Of a stretch of 64,000 bases of DNA, positions 17,855 through 50,500 are shown in pieces; the stretch's first letter is position 1, and each line of letters opens with the position of its first letter. Position numbers and translations under genes: made by a program. Origin of the DNA: Candidatus Enterocola sp. (GTDB lineage: Bacteria > Bacteroidota > Bacteroidia > Bacteroidales > Paludibacteraceae). The stretch covers positions 2,444-66,443 of the forward strand of contig JAZQZN010000003.1 in assembly GCA_045634045.1 (NCBI GenBank), written 5' to 3'. The notes below the pieces were generated by a model, which saw only the letters and a program-made list of their open reading frames with translations, was not told the origin of the DNA and did no database searches.

Positions 17855-18292
17855 TTACGCTTGTTGCATTCTTTTGCGGTATACCATAACCGCGCCGTAG
17901 GCAGCAACCATCATTAGCAAGAAGAACACAGGTGCGTCGAGGGGTTGACCAAGTTCTGGGTTTTCGCAGTTGGCATGACACTCGGCATTTTGTTTGAAAC
18001 AATCTTGCATACAGGCAGGATCGCCTGCACAGCTTGCAGCGCACTGATCCAATTCGCCTTCGCAGCAGGTTTTACAACTATTTATATCGCTTTGCCAAGA
18101 ATCTGGATTGCACGAACCATTATAGGCTCCTACGGTTGCTTGGTTTACAAAGCTAGTACCTGTGCTTATTGAATATCCTTTTTCTGCAGTAGCATTACTT
18201 ACGTATGAATTGTACGATTTACTTGGCAATCCTACAGCCATAGCGCAGGTAGCGCACATTGCCATTATTACAAATAAAATTTGTTTTTTCAT
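17855..18292 (-). CDS. small secreted Cys-rich protein with C-terminal PLDAP motif + TM helix + basic tail (module A, component 3)
   Basis: 145 aa. Signal peptide MKKQILFVIMAMCATCAMA; 10 Cys in the mature part (CKTCC core). C-terminus: QPLDAPVFFLLMMVAAYGAVMVYRKRMQQA. Paralogs at 40741-41163 and 50072-50500. Confidence 0.8.
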   Translation of the reverse strand: MKKQILFVIMAMCATCAMAVGLPSKSYNSYVSNATAEKGYSISTGTSFVNQATVGAYNGSCNPDSWQSDINSCKTCCEGELDQCAASCAGDPACMQDCFKQNAECHANCENPELGQPLDAPVFFLLMMVAAYGAVMVYRKRMQQA

Positions 18293-23514: not shown

Positions 23515-23547
23515 ATTGTGTATTTTTATTTTATTCTTACTAAGGTT

Positions 23548-27681: not shown

Positions 27682-27785
27682 AAATATCGATATTTTGTTT
27701 GTTTATTTTGTTCGTGTTTACACGTGTTATTTTCGTTTGGTTTCACCCTCGCTGCGCTTCGGGTGAGGGAGGGGCGCTTTCCTAT

Positions 27786-27850
27786 CCCTGCGTTGCGCTC
27801 GCAAGCTCGCTTAACACAGGGTTATTACCAAGGACAACCCCTGCGGGGTA
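27786..27850 (-). repeat. REP-like structured repeat (copy C)
   Basis: CCCTGCGTTGCG..CTTAACACAGGGTTA..ACCCCTGCGGGGTA (reverse orientation), 1 nt downstream of the PD-(D/E)XK gene stop. Confidence 0.85.
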
Positions 27851-27851
27851 A

Positions 27852-28478
27852 TTAAAAGCTTGCATCGCCCCAACGATACCAAAATTCATTAAAAAGGTCA
27901 CTTTCGGTTTGTATGTCGTTTTCGAGTAACTCATAAAACGAAAACAATTTGAATGCTGGTTTGGTATCGACTTCTGCTAGGTTGCCAAAATGCCTTATAA
28001 AAGGTGCGCTATTTCTTTCTAAACAGGTTATTAGGGCGTAATGCTTTTGCCACGTTTCTGATTGACTGTTATAGTGCGCATCGAACTTATTTTTGTACGC
28101 TACTAACTGATTCCTTTTTACGCCATCTATATCGGTTGCATCGTGCAAGCCTGTCAAATACTTGTTTTCTATTAGCAAGGCGTATTTGGTTATCTCGCCC
28201 CTTTGCTCTACATCAACCTCTACTCGCAAATCAATATCCTCCCACTGTTTCCAAACTTTTACGTTGCTAAAGATTACATCGTCTGTGTTTTCTATACTCA
28301 ATAACTTGCCAAGCATAAACCTGCAATGGCTGTATAGAATGGGTTTTTCGTCCTTGCAAATACCATCTGCTCTGCGCAAGCACCACGATATTACATAATC
28401 CATCATGCATTCTGCTTTGCCATTTTTCTCGGTCTGATCAACCATCAATTGAGGCATATCCGTTCTGTTGCTTTTCAT
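27852..28478 (-). CDS. PD-(D/E)XK nuclease-superfamily protein (PDDEXK_4-like), first gene of arm A
   Basis: 208 aa. E..(MDYVISWCL).. IDL .. LLIENKY gives an E / D / ExK arrangement, and QLVAYK follows. Paralog at 30995-31621. Confidence 0.6.
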   Translation of the reverse strand: MKSNRTDMPQLMVDQTEKNGKAECMMDYVISWCLRRADGICKDEKPILYSHCRFMLGKLLSIENTDDVIFSNVKVWKQWEDIDLRVEVDVEQRGEITKYALLIENKYLTGLHDATDIDGVKRNQLVAYKNKFDAHYNSQSETWQKHYALITCLERNSAPFIRHFGNLAEVDTKPAFKLFSFYELLENDIQTESDLFNEFWYRWGDASF

Positions 28479-29728: not shown

Positions 29729-29763
29729 TAGATTATTGATATACTAAGCAAGGTTTGTCGCAC

Positions 29764-29792
29764 AAAAAAACTGCCGTTGGTGCGGCAGGTTT
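29764..29792 (-). terminator. hairpin (CTGCCG-N6-CGGCAG + T7 on the minus strand), related to the two hairpins above
   Basis: Stem 29771-29776 / 29783-29788, with an A7 run at 29764-29770 on the plus strand. It sits between the divergent promoters of the core. Confidence 0.45.
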
Positions 29793-29871
29793 GGTAAAAG
29801 GATTATCGCACAAAACTTGGGCACGGATGATTAGACGAATAGGATTACTTGATTTTATAATTTATTTCCGT

Positions 29872-29879
29872 TACCTTTG
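29872..29879 (+). promoter_or_regulatory. -7 promoter box TACCTTTG for the toxin-antitoxin-like pair
   Basis: Matches TAnnTTTG, 32 nt upstream of the ATG at 29911. Confidence 0.45.
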
Positions 29880-29910
29880 TGGCATATTCATCCATTTAAT
29901 TCTTTACATT

Positions 29911-30087
29911 ATGAACAGAAAACCAAAAGAGCCGTATTTTCAAGGCACAGAGCCTGTTTACGGCAAGGCGGCAAAACGCCTACATCGTCTAATTATGAAC
30001 CCTCCCAAGGCTACTCCCGAGGAAAAAGAAAGAATGAGACAGAATTGCGAGTATTTTAAAAGTATCTCAACTTGTAAATTGTTATGA
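29911..30087 (+). CDS. 58-aa protein, putative antitoxin partner of the GNAT toxin (family not recognised)
   Basis: ORF 29755..30087, trimmed to MNRKPKEPYF downstream of the -7 box. Its stop overlaps the GNAT start (ATGA, 30084-30087). The sequence does not look like DUF1778 to me. Confidence 0.4.
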   Translation: MNRKPKEPYFQGTEPVYGKAAKRLHRLIMNPPKATPEEKERMRQNCEYFKSISTCKLL

Positions 30088-30617
30088 ATTCATTTCTTCA
30101 AAACCGCAGGTTTCGCCAATTAGAAGAGGGCGAAATTATAAAATCGTTCAACTGCGGTGATGCTGAGTTGAACGATTTTATTTTAACCAAAGCTGATCTG
30201 TACAAAAAATCATTGCTATCCGTAACGTATATACTTGAAGAAGGCGATGTTACGCTTGCTTACTTTTCGTTGTCAAACGATAGTCTTCGACACGAAAACT
30301 TTCGCAACACATCTTCATTTAATCGATTAAATCGTAGAATAAATAACGCGAAGCGAATGCGCGAATATCCAGCCATTAAAATAGGCAGATTTGCGGTGAA
30401 CAATGATTGCAAACACAGTCGCATGGGCAGTTCTTTATTAGACCATATCAAATTGTCTCTTATCGAAAACCCACAATCTGGTTGCCGTTTTATTACGGTC
30501 GATGCCTATAACGATGCGGTGGGTTTCTACCAGCGCAACGGCTTTATGCTGGTCAATGAATTCCAAGCGGACAGGCGCACGCAACCCATGTTTTTTGACT
30601 TAGCGCAGCTGCTGTAA
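30084..30617 (+). CDS. GNAT-family acetyltransferase of the TA-toxin type (TacT/AtaT-like)
   Basis: 177 aa. The N-terminal FNCGDAELNDFIL, then YPAIKIGRFAVNNDCKHSRMGSSLL and NDAVGFYQRNGF, follow the pattern of GNAT toxins. It is 4-nt coupled to a small upstream ORF. Confidence 0.6.
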   Translation: MNSFLQNRRFRQLEEGEIIKSFNCGDAELNDFILTKADLYKKSLLSVTYILEEGDVTLAYFSLSNDSLRHENFRNTSSFNRLNRRINNAKRMREYPAIKIGRFAVNNDCKHSRMGSSLLDHIKLSLIENPQSGCRFITVDAYNDAVGFYQRNGFMLVNEFQADRRTQPMFFDLAQLL

Positions 30618-30994: not shown

Positions 30995-31621
30995 ATGAAA
31001 AGCAACAGAACGCACATGCCTCAATTGATGGTTGATCAGACCGAGAAAAATGGCAAAGCAGAATGCATGATGGATTATGTAATATCGTGGTGCTTGCGCA
31101 GGGCTGATGTTATTTGCAAGGACGAAAAACCCATTCTATACAGCCATTGCCGTTATATGCTTGCCATGCTGTTGGGTCTGCCAGATTATAGCAACCTATT
31201 GTTTCGTGATGTAAAAGTATGGAAGCAAAATCAAGAAATTGATTTGTGGGTAGAGTTGAAGGTTGAAGAAGATGGGTTGTTGACAAAGCATGCCATACTA
31301 ATAGAAAACAAGTATTTGACGGGCTTGCACGATGCAACCGATGTAGATGGTGTAAAAAGGAATCAGTTAGTAGCGTACAAAAATAAGTTCGATGCGCACT
31401 TTAACAGTCAATCAGAAACGTGGCAAAAACATTACGCCCTAATAACCTGTTTAGAAAGAAATAGCGCACCTTTTAAAAGACATTTTGGCAACCTAACAGA
31501 AGTCGATACCAAACCAGCATTCAAATTGTTTTCGTTTTATGAGTTACTCGAAAACGACATACAAACCGAAAGCGACCTATTCAACGAATTTTGGTACCGT
31601 TGGGGCGATGCAAGCTTTTAA
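30995..31621 (+). CDS. PD-(D/E)XK nuclease-superfamily protein (PDDEXK_4-like), first gene of arm B
   Basis: 208 aa. Differs from the 27852-28478 product at 32 positions, 26 of them within aa 54-101. Confidence 0.6.
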   Translation: MKSNRTHMPQLMVDQTEKNGKAECMMDYVISWCLRRADVICKDEKPILYSHCRYMLAMLLGLPDYSNLLFRDVKVWKQNQEIDLWVELKVEEDGLLTKHAILIENKYLTGLHDATDVDGVKRNQLVAYKNKFDAHFNSQSETWQKHYALITCLERNSAPFKRHFGNLTEVDTKPAFKLFSFYELLENDIQTESDLFNEFWYRWGDASF

Positions 31622-31622
31622 T

Positions 31623-31687
31623 TACCCCGCAGGGGTTGTCCTTGGTAATAACCCTGTGTTAAGCGAGCTTGCGAGCGCAACGCAGGG
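31623..31687 (+). repeat. REP-like structured repeat (copy F)
   Basis: Differs from copy E at one position by eye. Starts 1 nt after the PD-(D/E)XK stop. Confidence 0.85.
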
Positions 31688-31791
31688 ATAGGAAAGCGCC
31701 CCTCCCTCACCCGAAGCGCAGCGAGGGTGCAACCAAACGAAAATAACACGTGTAAACACGAAAAAAATAAACAAACAAAATATCGATATTT

Positions 31792-35781: not shown

Positions 35782-35820
35782 ATTTAGAACCTTAGTAAGA
35801 ATAAAATAAAAATACACGAT

Positions 35821-38800
35821 ATGAAAAGATTTTATAACAATACATTAATAAGTGGGGCTTTCAGTAAAGCCCTACGAGTTATAGCCTTACTTTGCGTTCT
35901 ATTGGGCGTAAGCAGTAGTGCGTGGGGGGTAACATATTATATTGATGCAAGTTGTATATCAGGTGTACAACAAATTAGTTGGTTACAATATCAAAATGGT
36001 GGTGGAGATCTTATTTCTCAAAATACAAATTTTGATGGAAAAACTGCATTTCAGTTTACTGCTGATGCGGGTAAAACATTAAAATTACAACTTAAGATTG
36101 TGTCTGGGAATAGCACAACCTACCCAAATGAATATGACATTAATTTAACAGGGAATAATAACTGTATTGAGTTAGAATTAAACAACGGCCAATTAAGTTA
36201 TACACAAAAAGTATATAGTAGCTTAAAATGTGCTGGAGCTTGTACTCCTTCTGCTACCATAACAGGTGCTTCTTTATCTGCAGATAAAAAAACTATTACT
36301 TTATCGGGTAGTTTGACCACCGTTTGTAGTGCCACAGACACATATTATGGTTGGCAATATTGTACAGACGGCAAATCTTGGTCTGAATCTAATTACGTAG
36401 CAGGGGCACCTAATAACGCACATCATTCCCCTACGCCAGTTAACGATTACAGCAATACATGGGCAGGTCCTTCAGGTGGTCTAGTTCCTGGTACAACCTA
36501 TTATTTTAGAGCCTATGCATATGTAGATGGCACATTCTATTCAGATAACAATACCCGTTCAGTTACTATCCCATCTTCTGGTAGTGGCGATGTAAATTGT
36601 AGCAATATAGTTTATTTGGATCCTAATAATATTTGGAATAAAGATGGTGCTTGGTTTGCAGCACGTTTTTGGAATGATGCAGGAGATAAGTGGGTAGAGA
36701 TGAAAGCAACATCTTGCGGAAACATTTACTATGCTGAAATTCCTGATGGATATGTTAAAGTTATCTTTGTGAGAATGAATCCAAACAATTCTCTTGCTGA
36801 TGGATGGAATGGGAGATGGAACCAAACAGTTGATTTGACAGTTGATAATCAACTTTTTACTATTACAGGGGGACAAGACAACTCATATACAGGTTCATGG
36901 GGGACAACAGATTGTACCGAAGGTTGTACTCAGACAGATGTTGCAACCAACGTGCTACTTTCTCGCGAAGCCATTGTAAACAAATCCGTTAAAACCGCAC
37001 AACTTTTTGGTTACCTAAAAGCTACAAATTGTAATAGATATACCATTTATGGTTTCTACTATTGCATGGTAAACGATGGTGAAGCTCCTTGTATCCCATC
37101 TACTAGTAGCGATAGCTTAGCGGTTAGTAGCACTGAACAATTGCCACGTGGCAAAGAATTTACTGCAACAGCAAAAGATTTACAAGACGGCAAGACCTAC
37201 TACTATCGTGCTTACGCAACGAGTGATAAGGGTACAATCTTATCAGAAGAAATTCGCTCATTTAGCACCGACCCTTGTATCCCTCAATACGGTGGTTTGT
37301 CTGATAAATACAATGGTAAACCTATTGTATATACCATCAATGCCGACCCTGCATTTGCAGCAAACGACTGTAAATTGCACTTTAACTCATTGCAAGCTGC
37401 TATCGACCACCTAAAAGCAACCCATACAAGAGATGATGACTTTAAGTATGTAACTTTGAGTAATGGTTCTTATAATTTGAATCAACCAGTAGAAATGCGA
37501 GTAGTTTACTACGATGATACCCCAGATGATAATACTAAAACTTATATCTATAGAGGTAAAGAGATAGGTGTAAACGAATCTTTTGTCTATGCTGGTGACG
37601 ACAAACCTGCAAATGCCAATCTGATTCAGGATTTTAATAAATCAGGAGCAGATGCCAAAAATACACTATCTATTAAAGCAGGTAGCGATAAAGCAAAACC
37701 TTGGGTTCACCACATTGTAATACGTAATAGTAAGAACATACTATTAGACTCTCTATGTATTTATTCTGATCCAAAAGATTATGATGCAACAAAAGATGGT
37801 AATCAACTAAAAAGTGATAACGCTTTAGAAATAGACATCAATACAACCAAATGGAATATGGTTGAAGTGCAAAGCGATTGCAATTCGTATACAAGATCAG
37901 ATAATGATGGTACCTTTACATTTACCAACATGTGCGATGCTAATATTGTGATACAAAACTGTATGATTGGTTCTGCTGGTTTTACAGGATTGCACCTATC
38001 TGCATACGATGGTATTACCTTTAAAAACAATGAATTTGAAGCCATATTTAGTGCTCAAGCAGATAATGTGAAGCATAGAAATATGATTAATTATGGTGCT
38101 TCAGCTAAATTTATTGCATGTAAAAACATTAAGTTTATTCAAAATAACTTCCGTGGCTCGCACCCTACACTAATGTGGTTGCAAGAGTGTCAGAATGTAC
38201 TTATTATGAATAATGTATTCTGGTACACCAATGAATTAGACAAGAAAAATGGATCTGATGCCAATGCGGATACACCTGACAATGCTGCATTGCGACTTGT
38301 ACACCAATTTGGTGCAAAAGATAGTGTAGAAAACGTTGCTGCTTATTATAATACATTCTATGTAGCAGAAACCGATGTAAAAGATAAGTACAACTTCTTG
38401 TATTTTTCTAATACAGTTAATAATAATAGTTCATCGAATGGGAAATTTAAAATTAGTACTATTTATTTCAAATATAACAATTGTTATAGCTACGATTCTG
38501 GAGTTCCAGGAAGATCTAATAGTAATAAGACTATTAAGGATAATACTAGAGAAACCAGTGCCACAATTAACGAACCTTTCTTAGGTAAGGACGTAGCGAC
38601 AGACAATTTCTGTCCTAACAACTTCTGGAGTCAATATGACGAGGATAAAGGAAACGAGACTTCTGCCTTTGCATTTGGCTGTACAGATAATGAATTTATA
38701 AACGTTAAAAGCCAAGTATGTTCTACTACAGCATCTGGTCCAGCTTCATTAATAGTAAAAAGTAAAGGTATGGACTATGGTGATAAACCTGATATTAGCA

Positions 38801-40644
38801 CAACTGGTATTACACTAGAACCTAATGAACAATATGCAGACCGCTATATAATAGGTGCACGTCCTGCAAATGGTGAAAAATGGACTTATGGTGCTTACCA
38901 AAGCAAAGGTAATATTGATACCAAAGTTATCTATTGGGTTGGTGTTTCTAGTGATTGGGATGACCGCAACAACTGGGAATATGAAACAGAGGTTGATGGT
39001 AAAATGGTTCGTCAACGTGTATCTTGTGTAAACAACTTATCTGAAGATTTGAAAGTCGTTGTAGAAGAAATTGGTACAGTAGAAATAGAAGACGGTAGAA
39101 AATGGCCACAAATTCCTGCAAGCTTTACAGAAAATAGAACCAATAGCGAATACGATGAACACGTATCAGCTGGTTTAGGTACAGGAAACACTCCAACTAA
39201 ATTTGCTAGCACTATCGAACTAGAATACGGTGCCGGTATTAAGGGCGTAGAAAACCTAAGAGAAGCAGATGGTACCTTACGTTACGACCGCGCTATTACT
39301 CACTTTGATGCACCTCGCGATAAGTGGTTGCTAGTAGGTACTGTAGTTAAACCTTTTGAGGACGAAAAAACTGGCACAACCCGTAACATTATATCGCGCG
39401 ACTACTACATGGATTTCTTGCCACAAGTGTATATGCGCCAAACCGTAGTTGACGGAGACCAGATTTCTTGGACCAAAACATTCCCCAATTTGGATACCGA
39501 AGTACTATCAACTACCGTGTTTGCTATTAATGCAGTAAATAAATACGGTCCTTCGTTCCAAGAAGCAGTAGACTACAATGTGGCTAATGGCACTAACTAC
39601 GATGGCACCGCTCCAATTCCTTATACATTTACTGGACGTTTTGCGGTAGAAGAAGAGCGAGATGATGCCGAAGAATTGTATGCATTTACTATAGAAAATG
39701 GTAAAAACTTACTAAACAACAACTATCCATGTAACTTAGATGCAAAAGCATTAGAAGAAAAATATGGTGCTGTTAATGTCTACGACTATGTAAATGGAGC
39801 ATTTGTAAGTACTACTGCAAATTCAGTAGATGGTAATGTTTACATCAAAGCGCAAAATGGTTTTGTGTTTACTCCTAAAAATGGTCAATTAAAAATAGAG
39901 CCAAGTTTCTTGGTAGAAGGTTCTACTCGTACCCGTTCTGTAGAACGCGAGTTGCCTACCTTCTCGTTAAATGTAGATAATGCCAATACTACCCAACCTG
40001 GTGCAAGTAATGTGGTAATTAGATACGACCAAGAGCAAGAAGCCTTCTTTGAGGCGCCACTTAACACACCTAAGGTATTTACCAAGAACCTATACACTCC
40101 AGAGGTGTACATCATTAACAACGATGCATTCTACTCTCGTTTGTATGTAGGTAATGGTGTTACACAAGTACCACTTGGACTTCGTTTACTAAGAGCCATG
40201 AACGTAACCTTCCAAAAAGTGTACAACGAACAATTTACCACCATGATATTGGTAGATACTAAGACTGGAAAAGAATACGACTTGTTAGCAAGAGATTACA
40301 CCACCGAAAAGTTAGCTAAGGATACAATCGATGCTCGTTTCTACTTGAAGTTTGCTGTTGAAGAACAAGACGATTTCCAAGAGGATGACGACTTTGTAAC
40401 GGATATTACCGATGTAACGGATGCTTCTATCAACATTTATGCTGTTGACCAACAAATCATCAAGGTAATTGCAAATGATGTTGAACTACAAACCATTTAT
40501 GTGAATGATATGACAGGACGCATGACGCGCTACGATGCAAGTGGCTCGTATGCAGAATTGAAATTGCCTGTTGCACAAGGTGTTTACTTAGTACATGTAA
40601 TTGGTGATAAAGCAACAAGAACAGAAAAGGTGATTGTAAAATAA
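35821..40644 (+). CDS. giant T9SS-secreted beta-helix protein (module B, component 2)
   Basis: 1607 aa. The signal peptide matches the 1707-aa paralog at 31 of the first 36 positions. The conserved core starts at ~37320 (HHIVIRNSKNILLDSL, NIVIQNCMIGSAGFTGLHLSAYDGITFKNNEFE, WDDRNNWEY). T9SS tail: LQTIYVNDMTGRMTRYDASGSYAELKLPVAQGVYLVHVIGDKATRTEKVIVK. Confidence 0.85.
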   Translation: MKRFYNNTLISGAFSKALRVIALLCVLLGVSSSAWGVTYYIDASCISGVQQISWLQYQNGGGDLISQNTNFDGKTAFQFTADAGKTLKLQLKIVSGNSTTYPNEYDINLTGNNNCIELELNNGQLSYTQKVYSSLKCAGACTPSATITGASLSADKKTITLSGSLTTVCSATDTYYGWQYCTDGKSWSESNYVAGAPNNAHHSPTPVNDYSNTWAGPSGGLVPGTTYYFRAYAYVDGTFYSDNNTRSVTIPSSGSGDVNCSNIVYLDPNNIWNKDGAWFAARFWNDAGDKWVEMKATSCGNIYYAEIPDGYVKVIFVRMNPNNSLADGWNGRWNQTVDLTVDNQLFTITGGQDNSYTGSWGTTDCTEGCTQTDVATNVLLSREAIVNKSVKTAQLFGYLKATNCNRYTIYGFYYCMVNDGEAPCIPSTSSDSLAVSSTEQLPRGKEFTATAKDLQDGKTYYYRAYATSDKGTILSEEIRSFSTDPCIPQYGGLSDKYNGKPIVYTINADPAFAANDCKLHFNSLQAAIDHLKATHTRDDDFKYVTLSNGSYNLNQPVEMRVVYYDDTPDDNTKTYIYRGKEIGVNESFVYAGDDKPANANLIQDFNKSGADAKNTLSIKAGSDKAKPWVHHIVIRNSKNILLDSLCIYSDPKDYDATKDGNQLKSDNALEIDINTTKWNMVEVQSDCNSYTRSDNDGTFTFTNMCDANIVIQNCMIGSAGFTGLHLSAYDGITFKNNEFEAIFSAQADNVKHRNMINYGASAKFIACKNIKFIQNNFRGSHPTLMWLQECQNVLIMNNVFWYTNELDKKNGSDANADTPDNAALRLVHQFGAKDSVENVAAYYNTFYVAETDVKDKYNFLYFSNTVNNNSSSNGKFKISTIYFKYNNCYSYDSGVPGRSNSNKTIKDNTRETSATINEPFLGKDVATDNFCPNNFWSQYDEDKGNETSAFAFGCTDNEFINVKSQVCSTTASGPASLIVKSKGMDYGDKPDISTTGITLEPNEQYADRYIIGARPANGEKWTYGAYQSKGNIDTKVIYWVGVSSDWDDRNNWEYETEVDGKMVRQRVSCVNNLSEDLKVVVEEIGTVEIEDGRKWPQIPASFTENRTNSEYDEHVSAGLGTGNTPTKFASTIELEYGAGIKGVENLREADGTLRYDRAITHFDAPRDKWLLVGTVVKPFEDEKTGTTRNIISRDYYMDFLPQVYMRQTVVDGDQISWTKTFPNLDTEVLSTTVFAINAVNKYGPSFQEAVDYNVANGTNYDGTAPIPYTFTGRFAVEEERDDAEELYAFTIENGKNLLNNNYPCNLDAKALEEKYGAVNVYDYVNGAFVSTTANSVDGNVYIKAQNGFVFTPKNGQLKIEPSFLVEGSTRTRSVERELPTFSLNVDNANTTQPGASNVVIRYDQEQEAFFEAPLNTPKVFTKNLYTPEVYIINNDAFYSRLYVGNGVTQVPLGLRLLRAMNVTFQKVYNEQFTTMILVDTKTGKEYDLLARDYTTEKLAKDTIDARFYLKFAVEEQDDFQEDDDFVTDITDVTDASINIYAVDQQIIKVIANDVELQTIYVNDMTGRMTRYDASGSYAELKLPVAQGVYLVHVIGDKATRTEKVIVK

Positions 40645-41230: not shown

Positions 41231-41337
41231 TGTGTTGTTATAGTATATCCATTCGCTTAAAGGATGCATGAGGGCAGCGGAGAAGCTGATTTTATACTTT
41301 TTTTAGCAAACGTATGCAATTATCGGAAAAAAATGCG

Positions 41338-41345
41338 TACATTTG
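41338..41345 (+). promoter_or_regulatory. -7 promoter box TACATTTG for module copy C
   Basis: Matches TAnnTTTG, 35 nt upstream of the ATG at 41381 and downstream of the copy-B terminator. Confidence 0.45.
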
Positions 41346-41380
41346 GGCAGTTACTTTGTAAAATCTTAAAAATCAATAGT

Positions 41381-44300
41381 ATGAAGTCATTTCTACGCTT
41401 CTCTTCTGTTTTGTCCGCCTCGTCGGTAAAACGTTTTATCTTTTTGTTTTTCACCTTATTTGCTTTAAGCATTCCAACGTGGGGTGCAAATATTACAGCT
41501 GGCGCTAAAATTTATCTTGACATTTCTGGACATGCCAAAATGCAAGAAAGTGTAAAAGATGGCAAAAAGTTGCAAGTAATGGCAGGACATAGCACTTACT
41601 CTATTTGTTATGAAATGAAGCAAGAAGGTACTTGTTCTAACCTATATGTGGTAACCATGCCTAAATGGGACGGATGTACACAACTTGCCTTTATTACAGC
41701 AGATGCTATTTGGGGTGGAGAAGGAAATGGAAGTAGTTCCTCTCCACAAAATCGTAGTCAATGGGGATTAACAAGTTCTGGTTATGTTGGAAGTGCATCT
41801 ATTAGTACTATGGGTTCTACCGCTAAGCATCTTTATAAGACAACTGCAACAGGTTCTAACGCAACTGGAACATTAACGCGAGTAAGTGAATCCTTTTCTA
41901 CAACCTCATACAAGGTAACCACTTCTGCAACTAATGGTAGCATAACAGTTAAAAACGCTTGCGGAACAGCAATAACATCAGGGTCCTCTGTTACCTATTC
42001 AACAATCATTCAAGTTAGCACCGAAGCAGCTGCAGGTTACGAACTAGAAAGCGTAAAAATTGGTAGCACTACCTACACTGCTGATCAGTTTACACCAGGG
42101 CAAGAATATACCGTTACCGCGGCAACTACCATTTCGGCTACGTTTAAGGCAACGAGCTGTACAGAGGCTCCTACTGTAACAAATGGAACCACATCTCCAA
42201 CCTCAACAGAAACTAACATTACCGCATACGGAAAGGTAACTGCTTTGGGTACAAACTGTACCTTGTCTGAAACTGGGGTTAAATTGTATAGCGATGCCAA
42301 CTGCACAACTGAGGTGGCTACCATTAGCTCTTCGCCTACAAGTAGTTTAAATACCGAATACAGCGTAGAATTTACCGACCTATCGCCTAGTACCAAATAC
42401 TATGCTAAGGCCTATGCTATAACGACCAGTGGAATAACGGGCAATGCTAGCGATGCCATAGAAATTAGAACTGCCGACCCCTGTTTAGCGACTGGCAAAA
42501 CCATCTACCTAAAACCAAATGACAATTGGAAGCAAGCAGGCGCATACTTTGCGGCTTATTTCTTTATTGGCGATTCAAATACATGGGTAAAACTAACTCC
42601 TGTAGCAACAGATCCAACTGTTTATGAATGTATTGTGCCAGAAGGAGGATATAATACGCTTATTTTTACACGAATGAACCCTGATAAAGAAGGGCTAAAT
42701 TGGGATAATAAATGGGCGCAAACTGCCGATCTAAGTGGCAACTGTGATGCTAATTTGTTTACTATTCCAAATGGTGACTGGGAAGGTTCTGCTGATGCGG
42801 GCAACTGGACGCAATATACACCTCCTGTTTGCGACGAAACCAACCCCTGCATAGTGCCTGGTAGCACCTTTTATTTGCAACCCAACGCTAATTGGAAAGC
42901 AGATGGCGCTCGTTTTGCAGCCTATTTCTTTAATAACTGCGAAAACACCTGGGTAAGCCTAACCGATGCAAATAAAGACGGCATTTACGAGTGCACCGTG
43001 CCAGAGGGCAAATGGATGAATTTAATTTTCTGTCGCATGAATGGCACTAAAGCCGAAAATAACTGGGATAATGCATGGAACCAAACTGCAAACTTAAATG
43101 CATCGTGTGGATACGACTTGTTTGTGATGCCAGAAACTGTTTGGAACGGTGCAGACGATAGCAACTGGACTTATCAAATTCCAGATGTTCAAGGCGCTTA
43201 CATTGCGGCTACTCGAAACATCACCACGGTTTGCACCAACGACCTTTCGCGTTTTGCCTCGCTTTATGTTCACCAAACAGGCGAGGAAGATGCCGAAAAC
43301 GAGGGCTACGAGGTGGATGCATACCAATGGAAATACAGCACCAATGGTACATCGTGGAGTAACTACACTCCCGATGCCGCAACAGAATACGGCGTAAAAG
43401 GCAAAAACAACAACATTCGTACCTACCAAACGGGTTACTATCGTTGCGATATTACCTTGAGCAATGGCTCAGACACCAAGGTATTGCAATCGAACGTAAT
43501 TGAGTTAACACAGGCTGCCAATTGTGGTGCAAGTATTACCGATAAGGGAGATGATTTCCCTGTTTTCTACATTACTACTACTCAAAACTTCCCCACCTGT
43601 AGCAAAGATTACAACAGCCAATGTGGCGAAGATATGAAAGCCAAACGCACTGTTGATGTTAAGATGTATAATAAAGGTGCTTTGTGCTACGACCGCAAAG
43701 CGCGCATGAACATCAGGGGTTCGTCGAGCTTGAACTTTGATAAAAAATCGTACGCATTTGTAGGCGGTAAAGCCGATGCCAAAGTGGGCGGCGATGTTAA
43801 AACCGACAAACTTGGCTTCTTTGGACTGCCCGAACACAAAGATTGGGTGCTTTATGCGGCCTACGCCGATGCCAGCATGTTGCGTAATGTAATGGCCATG
43901 AAAGCCTACGCTACCATGACGGGTATGTGGAGTTGCCACACCCAACATGTAAAAGTGTACATGGACGGTAAATTTGCTGGGGTGTACGTATTTATGGAAA
44001 AACCTACCTACGGCAAAGGCCGTGTAATGGTAGACGAAAATAACGGTTACCTATTTGGCTTTGATAAAACATCGGTTGACGACCGTTTCGAAAGCCAAGA
44101 CAACAGCATCGATGCTAAAAAATCTACCTTCTTGAGTATGTACTCGGGTAGAAACGATATAGAAAGTTACGGTACACAATTTGACCAACGCTTTGAAATT
44201 GAATACCCCGAGCGTGAAAAAGTAGCGTTCGATGACGACGAAAACTTGGTGAACGAACAAGCTTGGACCGACAAGGTAAACAAACTAAAAGCACGTATCA

Positions 44301-47300
44301 ACGAATTTGAAGAGGCGCTATCGACAAAAGCTTACGGCCAAGTGCGTACCCTTATTGATTACCAAACATGGGCAGACTGGTTCATCCTTAACGAGTTCTG
44401 CAAAAACTTGGACGGTTTCCGTGCTTCTAACTGGTTTATTATTGAAAACGAAGGGGCAACCATCAAGGCATCGCCCATTTGGGACTTTGAACTATCGTTT
44501 GCCAACAAGGCATCTCAATCTACCATGGGCGAAAGCCCAGATGGTTGGTTGCACGAACATGAAGATATGCACACCGACGGATTCCCTATTCCATTCTGGT
44601 TCAACGGTATTGGTGCTACCAATGCCAATACAGGCGACAAAGATGGCGGTTGGACCATTAACCAAAGCGTTGACTTTGGTGGTTTGCTAAAAGACCCCTG
44701 CTTTAAGCAAATGCTAAAAGACCGTTGGGCGATTCATACCGCAGCAAATGGTGGTATTACCGAGCTAATTGAGTGGGTAACCACCGAAAGCAACATCGAT
44801 AATATGGCAGACCTCTTGGATCTTGAAGAAGAGCGTTGGCCTGCAGCAAGCCGCAGCAAAAATGCCAATGGCAAAGAAAATGGTTACGATCCACAAAGCA
44901 ATTGGGAAACCCAAGTAAGCGAGATTCAAGCCTATGTACAAGAGCGCAAAAACAAAATGGATGCTCTTATTGAAGGCCTAACCGTAGGTTACAGACAAAC
45001 CTTAGTAAAAGATGCCAAACCATCCGATTGGAAAACGCTAACACCTGCCAATGAGGATGGGGTAGATGTTTACACCTTCGACGAAGGCCGTGAAAAAATT
45101 ACTTTCGTAACCTACATGAAAGAAACCAACGATCCTGACGGAAAAGATTTGGCAGGTGGTATGCAAGCAGCCGACATGTGGAAATTCTATGCATCGACCG
45201 AAGATTTAACTGCAGAACAGTTGGATGCGTTGGATGCTTCTGTATGGAAATTGTTTGCAAAAAGCAATACTCCAGAGCTTCCTGCATTGGGTCAAGCAGA
45301 ATGTGGTTACTACTTTGTAGAAGGTGCGTTGTGTGCCACCAATATGAAATCGCAATACATCCGCATTAAGGTAACTCCAACCTGCGAACAAGGCGATTGC
45401 ACCAACAACTACTACCGTATTAAGCTAACAGATACCCAAACAGGTAATGTAATTTACACTCCTTCTATTAAAGGGGTAGATGGAACGGCAACATCTGTAA
45501 TTACCATTCCTTGCCAAGGCGAGTTTGACTGTGTGGTAGAAACCAAAAAAGGTGCCGTTTATTGGACCGAAATAGAAGGCAGTAAATATTTCCTATCTTC
45601 TGCTGAATCCAGAGGTGCAACTACCTTAAAAGTAGAGCTATTGAACTGCACTTCTACGGGTGCTACTGATGCCGTGAAGGTTAGATTTACAGAACAAACC
45701 GAGGGCGTTACCTCATACTACCAAATTGCTTTCTACTACGGTGGCGAGCTATTGGCAGGCATTAACTCGCTGGATGGCGAAACTGGTATTACCAACGGCC
45801 AAAACAAAGTATTGGAAGGTTTGCATTTCCCTGTAGGTACTACCTATGTTATTTACCGTCGCGATAACAACAAAGCATACGATGCGTTGTACAGCTGCTT
45901 GGTAGGCCAAAATTATGTAGCAGACACCTATACTGGATTGAATAGCAACCAATCGGTAACCGCCACCTTTAGCGTAAGCGAAATAGGCGAGCTAAACGTT
46001 AGCTACGAGGTTGTTACCCAAGAGCCTAATTACTGGATTTCTACCCCATTTGCGGGCCATACAGGATTTGAAGGTGGCGAACAAAACAAACAACACAAAT
46101 CGGACGGCAAAGACAATAACACCATGTTTGCCGTTGAATGCCAAGGTGTACAAGGTGGAGCGCAAGGCGACTTCTACTTGTACAAGTACATGGAAAAAAA
46201 ACCTAGCTGGAGTGGCAACTTAGCCCAAGCTGGCGTAAAAGACGGCAATAACGATAATGTAGAAGTAGCCACCAATGCCGATGAGTACGGTTTCCACGGT
46301 GGAGACGATATGCACAGCGTATGGGTACGTTGGTTGTTCGATTCGAGCCAAGGTGCATTGCACGTACACCATGTACACAACCTGCATTTGGAATGCAAAA
46401 ACTTTGATAATACCATTACCCGTGTAGCACCTACCACTAGCGATGCAGCAACAGGTATGCTTACCTTTGAGGTGGCAGACCTTACCAACGTGGCAAGCTA
46501 CCGCATTGTGGCAGATCATCCTCACGGCAATGGAGCATTTGAGGTACAACCCTGGGGCGCTGATTACCATAAAGTAGTTACCAACATCGGTAGTGCTACT
46601 TTTACCTATAACTACGCGCAAAACTGCATGACGGTAGTTTATTCGGACATTGTTTCGCTGACTATTCCTTGCCAGCAAGCAGGCGTTAGCATCAATGCCG
46701 AAGGCAAAGTAGAAGTAATAGTGGCAAACATGGGTACATTGGAAGCTATTGAGGGCTCTTACACCGTAGTGGTAACCAACCATACCACCAAGCTAACCAT
46801 GCGTGGTACTGGTGAGGACAATGTAGGCAAATTACTACCTGCTGGCGAGCAAGAAGTATTTACATCAACCGAAAAGATTACAGGTAGCTACTATATTACT
46901 GCTTCGCTTTACTACGGTACTACCTTGTTGAATACTTGCTCATTGCAAGATTTGAACTGCGAATATACCGTTATAGATACCGTAAGATACGTGGTGGATG
47001 CCAATTTGGGATTGGAATACCAAGACCCCTGCTCACTTACCTTTGGATCGCTCGAAAATGCCTTGAAACACCTAAAAGGAACACCTAAGTTTGTAAAAGG
47101 TGGTAGCTTGATTTACCCCGTGGTAATGGAGGTTGCTTACAGCAAAACCACCTACCAAGGTACACGCAAAGCAGGCGTATCGGGCGGTGGCACCGAATCG
47201 GAAAATGCAATGGCGCTGATCATCGAAAACTTTAACCAAATAGATGCTACCCATCCACTTATTATTCGTGCAGCTAATCCAAAATCTGCTCCATGGGTAC

Positions 47301-50056
47301 AACACGTTATTGTTCGTAACTCGCGCAATATTACCTTAGATGGTTTGTTCTTTGTATCGGACGTAACGGGTGCTGTTAAAGATGACGCCCTTGAGTTTGA
47401 CGTTAATAGCATGTCGTGGGAACTTATTGAGTTAGGTGCTGTAAAAGATGCCAACATTGTGGTGAAAAACAGTACCATTGGTTCAAGCGGCTTTACGGGC
47501 TTGCATGCATCGGGTTACGATGGCATCACCTTTATCAATAACAACTTTGAAGCGGTGTTCGATGGTTCTGATGCCAACTCAGCAACATGGGGCGCATCGG
47601 CCAAGTTTATCCGTTGTAAGAACATCCAATTCTTGCGCAACAACTTCCGTGGCGACCACGCTACCTTGGTTTGGTTGCAAGAATGTACCGATGCCTTGTT
47701 CATGAACAACGTGTTCTGGAATACCAACCAATACCAAGGCCGTTGCGCTGCTATTCGTTTGATTAGCCAATTTGGTATGCCTGTGAGCAACATGGCATTC
47801 TACTACAATACCTTGTTCTTGGCAGACAGCGAGGTGAACAACTACAAGTACGACTTCTTGCGCTTTGGTCAACAAGATCCTTCGGTAGGTAGCTATCCAG
47901 ACCGCTATACCAACATTGAGTTCATGTACAACAATGCGTATAGCTACGATACCGATATTGCAGGACGTAATAGCAATGCCGAGGCGTTCTACGGCATTGA
48001 CGTAACCACTACATATCCAAACTTCTGTAAAAACAACTTCTGGAGTGAATACGACGAAAAAGTAGCATCACCCCAATCGGTATTTAGCTTTGGTTGCGAA
48101 GGTCAAGATATGATTAACGTTCGCGATCAGCTATGTACCACTACGGCAACAGGTCCTGCTTCGTTGATTGTACGTGGTGAAGATTTGAACATTGGTTTCC
48201 GTCCTACTACCAACTTGGCTAGCCAATTGGGAGCCAATAACGGCCACGACCACGACCGCTACAATGCAAAACGTCCTGCGGAGGGTAAAGAGTGGACTTT
48301 GGGTGCTTACCAAATGGGCGAAGAAAAAGAAACAGATGTTATTATCTGGCAAGGGGTGGCAAGCTCCGACTGGGACGACCGCAACAACTGGATCGACAAA
48401 GAGGGCAGACGCCTTAACTGCTTGAACTTGCTATCGACAGAATTAACTGCCATTATTCCAGCAGAGTTCTCGCATCAATACACAACCCCTGCAGAAGGTA
48501 TCCGTAATTGGCCAAAAATACCTCAAAAATTCGATACAGGACGTACCAACATGAATTACGGCGAACACGTATCGGCTGGTTTGGGTATGGCGAAAGAAGA
48601 ATCGGAAATTACCCAATACGTAAAACACATTGTAATGGAGTACGGTGCTGCCATCGAAGGTGTTGAACGTTTGGTAGAAAATGCGGGCGAAAAAGAAGAA
48701 GTACGTCGCTACGATGATGTGGTTTACGGCTTCGATGTAGAACGTGAACAATGGGTATTGGTAGGTACTGTAGTGAAAAAAGCCGATCCCGAAGCGGAAG
48801 ACGGAAGCGGTTACCGCGACGTGGTTTCGGGCGACTACTACATTCATAGCCACGAGCCTCACGTTTACATGCACAAAGCCTACATCAACGATGAAGGCCA
48901 AGCCGATTGGGGTTCTCCTTTCCCTGACTTGACCATTCCAGTACCTTCGAACGAAGTGTTTGCCATTAAGGTGGCAGACCAATACGGTCCTAACAAGCTA
49001 CCAGCTAAACGCTACTACCGCAAAGGTACCGAAGAGCAACAAGCATCGGGCAGCAAACCTTGGTCGTATACCTTCGATGGACGTTTCGTAAACGAAAGTG
49101 CTATGCCATCCTACACTGGTTTAAACGTAGGTGAACCTGTGCTACTAAACAACTCTTATCCTATGAACATTAGTGCTCAAGCAGTGGAGGATAAATGGGG
49201 TAGCGTATTGCTATACGATTACGTTAACAAATCGTTTGGTAATATTGTAGGCGATGCGGTAATTAAACCACAACATGGCTTTGTAATTGAGCCAAATGCA
49301 AGTGCCATTAGCTTTACACCCGATATGTTGGTAGGTGGCGATACCAAATCGCGCTCAACAGAAGAGCAATCGCCTTTGTATGTGCTTAAGCTAAGCAAAG
49401 CCAACTCTACCGCTGGCGAAGCAAGTACGCTGCACATTGCTTACAACGAGTACAAAGACATGACTGCTCCTGCGATGCTTGATACCCGTAAGGTATGGTC
49501 GTACAACATCGGCACCCCTGATGTATACGCCATTATGCACGATGCGGATTACCAACGTTTGTTTGTAAACGGTTCGGTAACTACCATCCCATTGGGCATT
49601 AAGTTGCAAGAAGACATGCCAGTGGCATTTAGCAAGGTACAAAGCGAAGGATTTGTGCAAATGATTTTGGTCGATATGCTAACCGGCAAAGAATACAACC
49701 TATTGGGCAACGATAAAATTGTTACCGAAGAGTTAGCTGCAGGTGTAATCGAGGGCCGTTTCTACCTCAATATAGAAATTGAGGGCGAGGTAGTTGACGA
49801 CGAAGTAATTACCGATGTGGAAGAGGACGCAGCTGCCAGCATCCAAATTTATACATCGGACGACAATGAAATTTGTGTCATTACCGATGGCACCGACTTG
49901 CAAACCATTTATGTAAGCAGCATGGCAGGTCGTACACAGGCTTACGAAGTGAGCGGCAATTATGCTCGTTTGCGCTTGCCAGTGGCACAAGGTGTTTACT
50001 TGGTACAAGCCATTGCCGAAAATGCAACCCGTAGTGAAAAAGTAGTGTTAAAATAA
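41381..50056 (+). CDS. 2891-aa fusion protein: CotH-like domain + conserved beta-helix core + T9SS sorting tail (module C, components 1+2 in one ORF)
   Basis: ORF 41264..50056, trimmed to MKSFLRFSSVLSASSVKRFIFLFFTLFALSIPTWG because the earlier ATGs overlap or precede the -7 box. Two tandem CBM-like modules at ~42494-43180. CotH blocks at ~43645-44500 (RMNIRGSSSLNFDKKSYAF, HKDWVLYAAYADASMLRN, FEIEYPE, ADWFILNEFCKNLDGFRASN, PIWDFELSF). Core at ~46975-49800 (QHVIVRNSRNITLDGL, GFTGLHASGYDGITFINNNFE, WDDRNNW). T9SS tail: LQTIYVSSMAGRTQAYEVSGNYARLRLPVAQGVYLVQAIAENATRSEKVVLK. Confidence 0.85.
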   Translation: MKSFLRFSSVLSASSVKRFIFLFFTLFALSIPTWGANITAGAKIYLDISGHAKMQESVKDGKKLQVMAGHSTYSICYEMKQEGTCSNLYVVTMPKWDGCTQLAFITADAIWGGEGNGSSSSPQNRSQWGLTSSGYVGSASISTMGSTAKHLYKTTATGSNATGTLTRVSESFSTTSYKVTTSATNGSITVKNACGTAITSGSSVTYSTIIQVSTEAAAGYELESVKIGSTTYTADQFTPGQEYTVTAATTISATFKATSCTEAPTVTNGTTSPTSTETNITAYGKVTALGTNCTLSETGVKLYSDANCTTEVATISSSPTSSLNTEYSVEFTDLSPSTKYYAKAYAITTSGITGNASDAIEIRTADPCLATGKTIYLKPNDNWKQAGAYFAAYFFIGDSNTWVKLTPVATDPTVYECIVPEGGYNTLIFTRMNPDKEGLNWDNKWAQTADLSGNCDANLFTIPNGDWEGSADAGNWTQYTPPVCDETNPCIVPGSTFYLQPNANWKADGARFAAYFFNNCENTWVSLTDANKDGIYECTVPEGKWMNLIFCRMNGTKAENNWDNAWNQTANLNASCGYDLFVMPETVWNGADDSNWTYQIPDVQGAYIAATRNITTVCTNDLSRFASLYVHQTGEEDAENEGYEVDAYQWKYSTNGTSWSNYTPDAATEYGVKGKNNNIRTYQTGYYRCDITLSNGSDTKVLQSNVIELTQAANCGASITDKGDDFPVFYITTTQNFPTCSKDYNSQCGEDMKAKRTVDVKMYNKGALCYDRKARMNIRGSSSLNFDKKSYAFVGGKADAKVGGDVKTDKLGFFGLPEHKDWVLYAAYADASMLRNVMAMKAYATMTGMWSCHTQHVKVYMDGKFAGVYVFMEKPTYGKGRVMVDENNGYLFGFDKTSVDDRFESQDNSIDAKKSTFLSMYSGRNDIESYGTQFDQRFEIEYPEREKVAFDDDENLVNEQAWTDKVNKLKARINEFEEALSTKAYGQVRTLIDYQTWADWFILNEFCKNLDGFRASNWFIIENEGATIKASPIWDFELSFANKASQSTMGESPDGWLHEHEDMHTDGFPIPFWFNGIGATNANTGDKDGGWTINQSVDFGGLLKDPCFKQMLKDRWAIHTAANGGITELIEWVTTESNIDNMADLLDLEEERWPAASRSKNANGKENGYDPQSNWETQVSEIQAYVQERKNKMDALIEGLTVGYRQTLVKDAKPSDWKTLTPANEDGVDVYTFDEGREKITFVTYMKETNDPDGKDLAGGMQAADMWKFYASTEDLTAEQLDALDASVWKLFAKSNTPELPALGQAECGYYFVEGALCATNMKSQYIRIKVTPTCEQGDCTNNYYRIKLTDTQTGNVIYTPSIKGVDGTATSVITIPCQGEFDCVVETKKGAVYWTEIEGSKYFLSSAESRGATTLKVELLNCTSTGATDAVKVRFTEQTEGVTSYYQIAFYYGGELLAGINSLDGETGITNGQNKVLEGLHFPVGTTYVIYRRDNNKAYDALYSCLVGQNYVADTYTGLNSNQSVTATFSVSEIGELNVSYEVVTQEPNYWISTPFAGHTGFEGGEQNKQHKSDGKDNNTMFAVECQGVQGGAQGDFYLYKYMEKKPSWSGNLAQAGVKDGNNDNVEVATNADEYGFHGGDDMHSVWVRWLFDSSQGALHVHHVHNLHLECKNFDNTITRVAPTTSDAATGMLTFEVADLTNVASYRIVADHPHGNGAFEVQPWGADYHKVVTNIGSATFTYNYAQNCMTVVYSDIVSLTIPCQQAGVSINAEGKVEVIVANMGTLEAIEGSYTVVVTNHTTKLTMRGTGEDNVGKLLPAGEQEVFTSTEKITGSYYITASLYYGTTLLNTCSLQDLNCEYTVIDTVRYVVDANLGLEYQDPCSLTFGSLENALKHLKGTPKFVKGGSLIYPVVMEVAYSKTTYQGTRKAGVSGGGTESENAMALIIENFNQIDATHPLIIRAANPKSAPWVQHVIVRNSRNITLDGLFFVSDVTGAVKDDALEFDVNSMSWELIELGAVKDANIVVKNSTIGSSGFTGLHASGYDGITFINNNFEAVFDGSDANSATWGASAKFIRCKNIQFLRNNFRGDHATLVWLQECTDALFMNNVFWNTNQYQGRCAAIRLISQFGMPVSNMAFYYNTLFLADSEVNNYKYDFLRFGQQDPSVGSYPDRYTNIEFMYNNAYSYDTDIAGRNSNAEAFYGIDVTTTYPNFCKNNFWSEYDEKVASPQSVFSFGCEGQDMINVRDQLCTTTATGPASLIVRGEDLNIGFRPTTNLASQLGANNGHDHDRYNAKRPAEGKEWTLGAYQMGEEKETDVIIWQGVASSDWDDRNNWIDKEGRRLNCLNLLSTELTAIIPAEFSHQYTTPAEGIRNWPKIPQKFDTGRTNMNYGEHVSAGLGMAKEESEITQYVKHIVMEYGAAIEGVERLVENAGEKEEVRRYDDVVYGFDVEREQWVLVGTVVKKADPEAEDGSGYRDVVSGDYYIHSHEPHVYMHKAYINDEGQADWGSPFPDLTIPVPSNEVFAIKVADQYGPNKLPAKRYYRKGTEEQQASGSKPWSYTFDGRFVNESAMPSYTGLNVGEPVLLNNSYPMNISAQAVEDKWGSVLLYDYVNKSFGNIVGDAVIKPQHGFVIEPNASAISFTPDMLVGGDTKSRSTEEQSPLYVLKLSKANSTAGEASTLHIAYNEYKDMTAPAMLDTRKVWSYNIGTPDVYAIMHDADYQRLFVNGSVTTIPLGIKLQEDMPVAFSKVQSEGFVQMILVDMLTGKEYNLLGNDKIVTEELAAGVIEGRFYLNIEIEGEVVDDEVITDVEEDAAASIQIYTSDDNEICVITDGTDLQTIYVSSMAGRTQAYEVSGNYARLRLPVAQGVYLVQAIAENATRSEKVVLK

Positions 50057-50071: not shown

Positions 50072-50500
50072 ATGAAAAAGATTATTAGTTTTGTTCTATT
50101 GTTGCTTGGCTCGTTGAGTGTATATGCTGTATCGATGCCTTCAAAATCTTACTATCGTTTTGGTGAGATTGGAACTACCGAAGGAGTAGTTTTGTCAACA
50201 GGTGTCCAAATTGGGAACAATGCCACGGTGGGTACTTACATTTATACGCAGTGTTTGTTCCCCGGTGACGAAAACGGGAAATGTGCAGAATGTTGTAACA
50301 CGGCAGTTAATTGCGATGATGCTTATGCCGAAGGCGATGAGACCGCCATTGAAGAATGCGAAACCAACTACGGTAAATGCATTGGTTACTGCGAGGGTGG
50401 CCCTTCGTTACCTTTGGATGCATCGTTGCTGATGCTATTGGGTATGGTGGCTGCTTACGGTGTGCGCAAATACCGCATGGCGGCATCGGAGAAAGAATAA
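50072..50500 (+). CDS. small secreted Cys-rich protein with C-terminal PLDAS + TM + basic tail (module C, component 3)
   Basis: 142 aa. Signal peptide MKKIISFVLLLLGSLSVYA; 8 Cys (CAECC core). C-terminus: SLPLDASLLMLLGMVAAYGVRKYRMAASEKE. The ATG lies 15 nt after the fusion ORF stop. Confidence 0.8.
   Translation: MKKIISFVLLLLGSLSVYAVSMPSKSYYRFGEIGTTEGVVLSTGVQIGNNATVGTYIYTQCLFPGDENGKCAECCNTAVNCDDAYAEGDETAIEECETNYGKCIGYCEGGPSLPLDASLLMLLGMVAAYGVRKYRMAASEKE

Follow-up and report, generated by a model that had tools for sequence, protein, structure and literature searches.

The DNA analyzed here is a stretch of 64,000 nucleotides (nt) from Candidatus Enterocola sp. (assembly GCA_045634045.1, contig JAZQZN010000003.1, positions 2,444 to 66,443 of the forward strand), referred to as the window throughout. 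The window contains three paralogous copies of one locus, copy A on the minus strand and copies B and C on the plus strand, and the genes that flank them are housekeeping genes. In copies A and B, a protein with a CotH kinase-like domain and a beta-helix protein carrying the C-terminal tail of the type IX secretion system (T9SS) are encoded by two adjacent genes, and a small third gene follows. In copy C, the subject of this analysis, the CotH domain and the beta-helix core belong to one open reading frame (ORF). The stop-free frame extends from 41264 to 50056 on the plus strand (2930 codons), and translation from the ATG at 41381 yields a product of 2891 residues that begins with MKSFLRF. The initial annotation of the window had described one uninterrupted ORF of this length, and no stop codon is found between 41381 and 50056. 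The start at 41381 is common to the orthologues of copy C, which align from residue 1, and the N-terminus has, as judged by eye, the appearance of a signal peptide, being hydrophobic and ending in WGA. Copy C consists of the following parts, where Ig stands for immunoglobulin, CBM for carbohydrate-binding module and GH for glycoside hydrolase.

41381..50056, plus strand: fused ORF, with signal peptide, N-terminal modules, CotH, middle region, beta-helix core and T9SS tail
41381..41800, plus strand: signal peptide and first ~140 residues, sharing 44% identity with the start of the stand-alone core protein of locus L055
42485..43180, plus strand: two CBM-like 'YLKPNxxW' modules, residues ~369–600, also present in partner proteins and in CBM26/GH13 proteins
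43229..44953, plus strand: Ig-like module and CotH kinase-like domain (blastp block, residues 617–1154; PF08757, residues 777–1191)
44954..46801, plus strand: middle region, residues ~1192–1807
46802..49870, plus strand: conserved core, residues 1808–2830 (AlphaFold2 model, predicted local distance difference test, pLDDT, 81)
49871..50053, plus strand: T9SS type A C-terminal domain (TIGR04183, 18.3 bits), homologous to the tails of copies A and B
50072..50500, plus strand: gene 3, a 142-residue Cys-rich protein with a signal peptide, a C-terminal 'LPLDAS', a hydrophobic helix and a basic tail

Two boundaries had to be moved with respect to the initial annotation. The CotH block, which had been ended near 44500, reaches about nt 44950, and the stretch without similarity to copies A and B measures about 600–650 residues (residues ~1192–1807) instead of the ~800 residues that had been called unique. 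Searches of this middle region detected neither similarity to A or B, nor a tail domain of the kind found in the split CotH proteins, nor an internal signal peptide. The two CBM-like modules that had been recognized in the N-terminal part do resemble CBM26/GH13 modules and modules of the partner proteins, but a Pfam search of copy C gave no match for them (residues ~369–600).

Conservation of the fused gene

A search of the public protein collection revealed 13 clusters (at 90% identity) that are 58–100% identical to copy C, are 2767–3095 residues long and display the same fused architecture. All 13 contain CotH, and the query is covered either end to end or in collinear blocks. One entry (P0001) is exactly the 2891-residue product of copy C; looking up this exact sequence in the contig index gave no hit, and independent support is thus provided by the orthologues. 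The 12 others share 58–81% identity with P0001 and derive from assemblies of ENA, NCBI and Logan. Among these, P0008 (63% identity) was seen on at least six contigs from different samples with the same synteny, where a split cassette with its small gene precedes it, much as in the window. The middle region is kept in frame among the fused orthologues, with a column identity of 48–71%. Since the fused architecture occurs in 13 clusters from independent assemblies, the fusion in copy C is not an assembly artefact, and the ORF is a genuine, evolutionarily maintained gene. That an assembly or sequencing error joined two genes, as might be suspected from the fact that the exact P0001 sequence is on record from one contig only, was rejected as next to impossible in view of the 12 further clusters with the full-length architecture, the six contigs of P0008 and the in-frame conservation of the middle region. 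A protein of 1315 residues (P0073), the only apparent split of a C-type gene, which could have represented a stand-alone C-type core, or a recent fission, was discarded, as its frame is broken at a run of N in the scaffold.

Comparison with the split copies

The genes of copies A and B are arranged as follows.

23548..27681, minus strand: copy A gene 1, stand-alone CotH protein, 1377 residues
23551..23898, minus strand: copy A tail domain, an Ig-like beta-sandwich with motifs TTPW, IPRPxxWGxG and CG and a terminal acidic-Cys stretch
23515..23547, minus strand: copy A junction between genes 1 and 2, conserved, 33 nt, same frame, one TAG between
18391..23514, minus strand: copy A gene 2, stand-alone core/T9SS protein, 1707 residues, own signal peptide MKRFYNNT
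17855..18292, minus strand: copy A gene 3, small Cys-rich anchored protein, 145 residues
31792..35781, plus strand: copy B gene 1, stand-alone CotH protein, 1329 residues, with the tail domain at ~35434–35778
35782..35820, plus strand: copy B conserved junction
35821..40644, plus strand: copy B gene 2, stand-alone core/T9SS protein, 1607 residues
40741..41163, plus strand: copy B gene 3, small Cys-rich anchored protein, 140 residues

Both halves of copy C align properly with the split proteins in blastp comparisons. On the N-terminal side, residues 617–1154 of copy C correspond to residues 674–1196 of the A CotH protein (39.7% identity, E 5e-102), and residues 620–1150 to residues 634–1139 of the B protein (38.7%, E 4e-99). 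On the C-terminal side, residues 1808–2891 correspond to residues 602–1707 of the A partner (41.7%, E 0), and residues 1868–2891 to residues 502–1607 of the B partner (41.5%, E 0), with alignments that extend across the T9SS tail to the last residue. Two separate proteins are therefore homologous to non-overlapping parts of copy C, which is the pattern of a Rosetta-stone fusion.

The distances between the split genes (33 nt in A, 39 nt in B) and the C-termini of the stand-alone CotH proteins are as originally reported. These proteins were also correctly described as having no recognizable T9SS tail: neither the A nor the B CotH protein matched TIGR04183 at E <= 1, and hhalign was likewise negative. 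The accompanying statement, that the fusion alone links CotH to an export signal, holds within the window but not in a wider frame, as many clusters show that Bacteroidota commonly combine CotH with a T9SS tail in the same protein (PF08757 + PF18962).

CotH domain and core

The CotH domain of copy C (PF08757, residues 777–1191) scores 113.4 bits, compared with 131.9 bits in copy A and 124.6 bits in copy B, at a cut-off of 23.8. A family profile was needed to reach the Bacillus CotH structure (PDB code 5JD9); a single-sequence phmmer search of the PDB with the CotH region of copy C gave no match. D296 and D320 of the CotH alignment line up with the NFD and PWD motifs of 5JD9. The aspartate equivalent to B. 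subtilis D228 and the aspartate of the 'WD' motif, which from its spacing we take to be B. subtilis D251, are invariant in 22 family sequences. Because the domain keeps these two catalytic-site aspartates, an extracellular enzymatic role in phosphotransfer is plausible. D228 is the catalytic residue of CotH and is the position mutated in the catalytically dead protein (PMC7821199).

The AlphaFold2 model of the core, calculated from an alignment of 43 sequences (pLDDT 81), consists of a right-handed beta-helix, ~600 residues of conserved beta-rich domains, a disordered acidic linker and the T9SS tail. The right-handed beta-helix fold predicted for the first part of the core maps to roughly nt 46979–48061, with regular short strands at core residues ~137–381. 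Foldseek searches with this part returned tailspike depolymerases, GH110, GH28 and a polysaccharide lyase (probability 0.9–1.0, E 3e-4 to 1e-2), and the Pfam Beta_helix match in the core stayed below threshold. In TIGR04183 the A and B partners score 29.9 and 24.9 bits, respectively (cut-off 23). The profile of the core-family C-terminal domain (CTD) aligned to the CTDs of CotH-PF18962 proteins with an hhalign probability of 92%.

A family of three-gene cassettes

A scan with a core profile, limited to one genome per species, returned 72 loci, all of them (72/72) from Paludibacteraceae, 'Candidatus Enterocola' or uncultured Bacteroidales metagenome-assembled genomes (MAGs), the host sources being ruminant, horse and other guts. 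Several core loci, up to eight, are found in a single MAG. At E <= 1e-5, the protein collection contains 362 core-family clusters and 247 CotH-family clusters.

All ORFs of the related loci were searched with custom hidden Markov models (HMMs) for core and CotH. This provided the survey of split and fused states that the initial annotation had called for: in 21 loci the core gene is directly preceded by a CotH gene, and the two are fused in the lineage of copy C (the window and L001–L005) and in the distant locus L030. Among the split loci, CotH and core distances are correlated (r = 0.78). In about 25 loci the upstream gene lacks CotH and is made of Ig, PKD or Fn3 modules, so CotH is not an obligatory partner of the core. 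The N-terminal modules of the gene-1 and core families are related to CBM26 and to starch-binding modules found in GH13 enzymes.

Gene 3 follows 67 of ~70 core genes. It encodes a protein of ~140–150 residues with 6–12 Cys and a signal peptide; the mature chain starts with 'VTLPSSSY', and a C-terminal 'SLPL[DG]xx' motif is followed by a hydrophobic helix and a basic tail, an ending that resembles a tripartite sorting signal or a tail anchor. Given the conservation of gene 3 and the contents of gene 1, the unit is a three-gene cassette, composed of a variable secreted gene 1, a core gene with a T9SS tail and a small Cys-rich anchored gene 3, in which CotH is one of several payloads.

Two loci depart from this arrangement. 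L030, in the distant Bacteroidales MAG AS22ysBPME_181, encodes a second fused CotH-core protein of 3278 residues (3452–13288) whose core and CotH regions are ~36–37% identical to those of copy C by blastp. Its CotH domain is followed by two related Ig-like segments of ~130 residues (33% mutual identity), each then followed by CBM-like modules, and no gene-3 homologue was found within 500 nt downstream. In L031, a CotH protein of 707 residues (4192–6312) is encoded downstream, not upstream, of the core gene, and it branches with CotH proteins from outside the cassette family.

Tail domain and junction

A conserved domain of ~110 residues, with the motifs TTPW, IPRPxxWGxG, CG and ATIxLxDE...C, closes the split CotH proteins. 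Structure prediction gives this tail an Ig-like beta-sandwich fold (pLDDT about 90), and its best Foldseek matches are generic Ig and Big_2 domains. The tail HMM also matches non-CotH gene-1 proteins at their extreme C-terminus, at least eight of them with E 3e-13 to 4e-35 and two further ones weakly. Of 133 CotH proteins collected, 55 end in the tail, 22 in a T9SS tail of their own, and 13 are fused; the tail and a T9SS tail occur together in none (0/133). Where present, the tail lies 0–10 residues from the C-terminus, with one exception at 50.

The fused proteins gave no match to the tail in hmmsearch, and profile comparisons for a remnant yielded hhalign probabilities of 11% or 0.2% in the C lineage and of about 1% or less for the two candidate segments of L030. 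The possibility that the tail is a divergent T9SS CTD was examined and found unsupported: hhalign probabilities against two T9SS CTD profiles were 0.2–0.4%, compared with 92% for the positive control, and T9SS tail structures are absent from the top 50 Foldseek matches of the tail.

Directly after the tail, a spacer reading GAACCTTAGTAAGAATAAAATAAAAAATACACxAT is nearly invariant in 21/21 split loci. It is also present between genes 1 and 2 of non-CotH cassettes. In 27 loci it occurs in a single copy each, and it is near-invariant across species and paralogues although the flanking proteins are ~40% identical. A near-invariant signal peptide follows, MKRFYNNT..SGAFSKALRV.ALLCVLLG.S.SAWG. The spacer may act as a translation-initiation or coupling element, or as a point of recombination or gene conversion. 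The fused gene has none of these elements: the tail, the 33-nt spacer and the MKRFYNNT signal peptide are all missing. For the tail domain, the 33-nt junction and the gene-3 protein, searches of Pfam and NCBIfam and of the literature returned no family and no paper.

Proposed interpretation: payload, carrier and export

We favor, with a confidence slightly above even, the view that copy C is a T9SS cargo and the covalent version of a modular three-gene surface-protein cassette whose split payload docks on its carrier. Gene 1 would encode a Sec-exported, module-rich payload, with CotH in the present case and with Ig, Fn3 or PKD modules only elsewhere, that ends in the family-specific Ig-like tail. 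Gene 2 would provide the carrier, with variable N-terminal modules of a glycan-binding type, the beta-helix, the ~600 residues of conserved domains and the type A T9SS CTD, and gene 3 would contribute the small Cys-rich protein with its anchor or sorting-like signal. The tail would dock the payload on the carrier or on the gene-3 product, and the two would reach the cell surface jointly. In the fused lineage, the CotH block would lie inside a carrier-type chain with the tail, the spacer and the second signal peptide gone, probably as a mosaic that arose by module shuffling. The observation that the tail never accompanies a T9SS tail and is undetectable in the fused proteins fits a non-covalent docking that was replaced by covalent linkage.

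The initial annotation took the fusion as evidence that the two products act together. A functional link is supported, in the Rosetta-stone sense, by the conserved adjacency in 21 loci, the co-divergence of CotH and core (r = 0.78), the two fused lineages and the complementary distribution of the tail; that about 25 cassettes have a gene 1 without CotH restricts the claim. The conserved fusion suggests that the two proteins may work as a complex, and from these sequence patterns we infer a physical interaction and a piggy-back export of the split CotH proteins.

Several points weigh against this interpretation. The structural match of the beta-helix is weak (Foldseek E about 3e-4, with a low TM (template-modeling) score), the T9SS tail of copy C itself remains, at 18.3 bits, below the TIGR04183 cut-off of 23, and the availability of ATP outside the cell makes a kinase activity of CotH uncertain. 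The CotH and core trees, presented below, give conflicting pictures of how the fusion originated. That the tail serves in docking is something we infer from sequence, and its loss from the fused proteins is equally expected if it is a C-terminal secretion signal.

The last point defines the main rival to docking, namely that the tail is a C-terminal export signal that would also be lost on fusion. Gene-1 proteins would then be exported independently through a new secretion or sorting signal (of the T9SS or another system), or would be periplasmic, and adjacency and fusion would reflect co-regulation or a shared pathway instead of a complex. The position of the tail within 0–10 residues of the C-terminus, with the single exception at 50, its mutual exclusion with T9SS tails and its absence from the fused proteins are all as anticipated for a signal that functions at the C-terminus only; moreover, T9SS tails and this tail are both Ig-like beta-sandwiches, and F. 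johnsoniae ChiA has a T9SS signal that is unlike type A or type B. By contrast, the tail has no sequence relation to T9SS tails (hhalign <1%), the top 50 Foldseek matches include no T9SS tail structure, the tail is found only next to core genes in the loci examined, and covalent fusion has taken place in two lineages. On balance, independent export appears rather unlikely.

A more far-reaching form of the docking model would have gene-1 proteins without a T9SS signal reach the surface with their Ig-like tail docked to the CTD-bearing carrier and travel or anchor along with it, as 'hitch-hikers' of T9SS export, with the fused ORF as the covalent variant and the near-invariant junction as an exchange point at which payloads are swapped between cassettes. 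Taken as a whole, we consider this scheme doubtful. Should the interaction of payload and carrier not be confirmed, the fusion would amount to ordinary domain shuffling in a large paralogous family of surface proteins.

Origin of the fusion

Residues 1–452 of copy C are collinear with residues 1–426 of the protein of locus L074, and copy C has the appearance of a carrier-type protein within which a block of ~1300 residues that contains CotH is nested. Bootstrapped neighbor-joining trees were calculated for the two parts. In the core tree, the C clade joins a large split clade (98%) and leaves out a second split clade (100%), and L030 falls outside both (89%). In the CotH tree, all split CotH domains form one clade (97%) that excludes those of copy C and L030; the p-distance of the copy C CotH to every split CotH is 0.53–0.54, compared with 0.43 between the split clades. 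Simple fusion and simple fission were both set aside, as each conflicts with one of the two bootstrapped trees. The topologies may instead indicate that the fused gene is a mosaic or that its CotH has evolved faster. The fusion is, on these sequence comparisons, not an end-to-end join or the loss of a stop codon in a pair of the A/B type, because its N-terminus is core-type, its CotH lies outside the split clade and the junction module is absent.

A stand-alone carrier is likelier to be the ancestral state, because its signal peptide is shared by deep-branching, CotH-free cassettes. The converse, an ancestral fused form from which the split pairs originated by gene fission, would agree with the CotH tree, in which the two fused lineages are basal to the monophyletic split clade (97% bootstrap), and with the T9SS tails carried by outgroup CotH proteins. 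The core tree would require two fissions that each produced the same 33-nt junction and MKRFYNNT signal peptide, and deep-branching core proteins without CotH already possess related signal peptides; we accordingly regard fission as improbable.

That the split pairs also yield a fused product by stop-codon read-through is most improbable: the two genes are in frame in copies A and B and in locus L006, with a single stop (TAG) in A, but the 7/21 split loci in frame equal the chance expectation, on which a conserved read-through was rejected, most split loci use TAA with further stops in the spacer, and the partner keeps its own highly conserved signal peptide.

Genomic context of the three copies

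An inverted duplication lies upstream of copies A and B (27557–28478 and 30995–31900). It comprises two nearly identical ORFs of 208 residues, at 27852..28478 (minus strand) and 30995..31621 (plus strand), for which Pfam and NCBIfam gave no family, as well as the spacers downstream of them and codons 1–35 of the CotH genes in A and B (94% amino acid identity). Beyond that, identity between the two CotH proteins does not exceed 45%, and most of the sequence before residue ~620 cannot be aligned. The region of copy B (32000–40000) has a G+C content of 0.37–0.38, compared with 0.42–0.50 in copies A and C and in the housekeeping flanks, which could point to a different origin or age.

In the window, the inverted split copy A adjoins a MurF-like gene (Mur ligase-like, 16265–17605) and GcpE; in L001 (region 19157–20662), it is the fused gene with its small gene that adjoins the MurF-GcpE-ribosomal protein genes. 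The comparison suggests an inversion or a cassette exchange between paralogous copies. Between the divergent cassettes of the window (region 29755–30617), a GNAT acetyltransferase (30084..30617; PF13673, E 8e-7) is preceded by a small ORF that ends at 30087, and the two could be a toxin-antitoxin-like pair. The corresponding place in L001, between the split and the fused cassette, is occupied by a zeta-toxin/DUF3791 pair.

Comparison with known systems

The CotH domain, the T9SS cargo and the gene fusion are each of a known kind. For their setting, the cassette family, no published description was found, and a literature search found no paper that connects CotH with T9SS. In this family, split, fused and CotH-free forms of the same system exist naturally next to one another within one genome, and the analysis defines three sequence elements: the Ig-like tail domain, the near-invariant 33-nt junction and the small anchored gene-3 protein. 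The family raises the questions of whether CotH is delivered to the surface in complex with a beta-helix carrier and whether a T9SS cargo is able to carry a partner without a C-terminal signal; piggy-back export of this sort would be notable if true.

As in the Rosetta-stone or domain-fusion pairs that were reportedly described by Marcotte in 1999 and by Enright in 1999, one composite protein has non-overlapping parts whose homologues are two adjacent stand-alone proteins, here in both paralogous and orthologous loci. The difference is that the present composite appears to be a mosaic: its N-terminal modules are of the partner type, and its CotH is phylogenetically distinct. With right-handed beta-helix glycan-active proteins (tailspike depolymerases, GH110, GH28 and polysaccharide lyases), the core shares the predicted fold of its first ~360 residues, the structural similarity being only weak.

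The resemblance to the Bacillus CotH spore-coat kinase (PF08757; PDB codes 5JD9 and 5JDA) is seen in domain scores far above threshold and in the retrieval of 5JD9 with the family profile. By contrast, the present family is at ~30% identity or less, is secreted and, in the fusion, is embedded in a multi-module protein of 2891 residues; it is found without CotB- or CotG-like substrates in a host that is not a spore former, and the Asn located five residues past the catalytic Asp is replaced by an invariant Ser.

Bacteroidota CotH proteins with their own T9SS CTD (PF08757 + PF18962), among them P0234 (41% identity), likewise link CotH covalently to a T9SS signal. They are 450–1200 residues long and lack the ~1000-residue beta-helix core, whereas the T9SS tail of the fusion is part of its carrier moiety.

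Extracellular CotH domains are widespread in fiber- and starch-degrading gut microbes, including those with cellulosomes, anaerobic fungi and Bacteroidota. In cellulosomes, extracellular CotH proteins are attached by dockerins and their role is still unclear (PMC12484212; PMC6083626); CseP (Cthe_0044) of C. thermocellum and the dockerin-CotH proteins of anaerobic fungi and ruminococci belong to this group, and one CotH protein of the collection (P0291) carries a dockerin as well. Like the cassette proteins, these are extracellular CotH proteins of gut or anaerobic microbes that degrade fiber or starch, and they bear a docking module for a surface assembly, to which the tail would be the counterpart. 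The phylum and the secretion system differ, and attachment here is by covalent fusion to a T9SS cargo, by a T9SS tail of the protein itself or, presumably, by the Ig-like tail, in place of a dockerin-cohesin pair. If the phosphotransfer role holds, it is plausible that the CotH fusion of copy C is comparable to the dockerin-tagged CotH proteins of cellulosomes.

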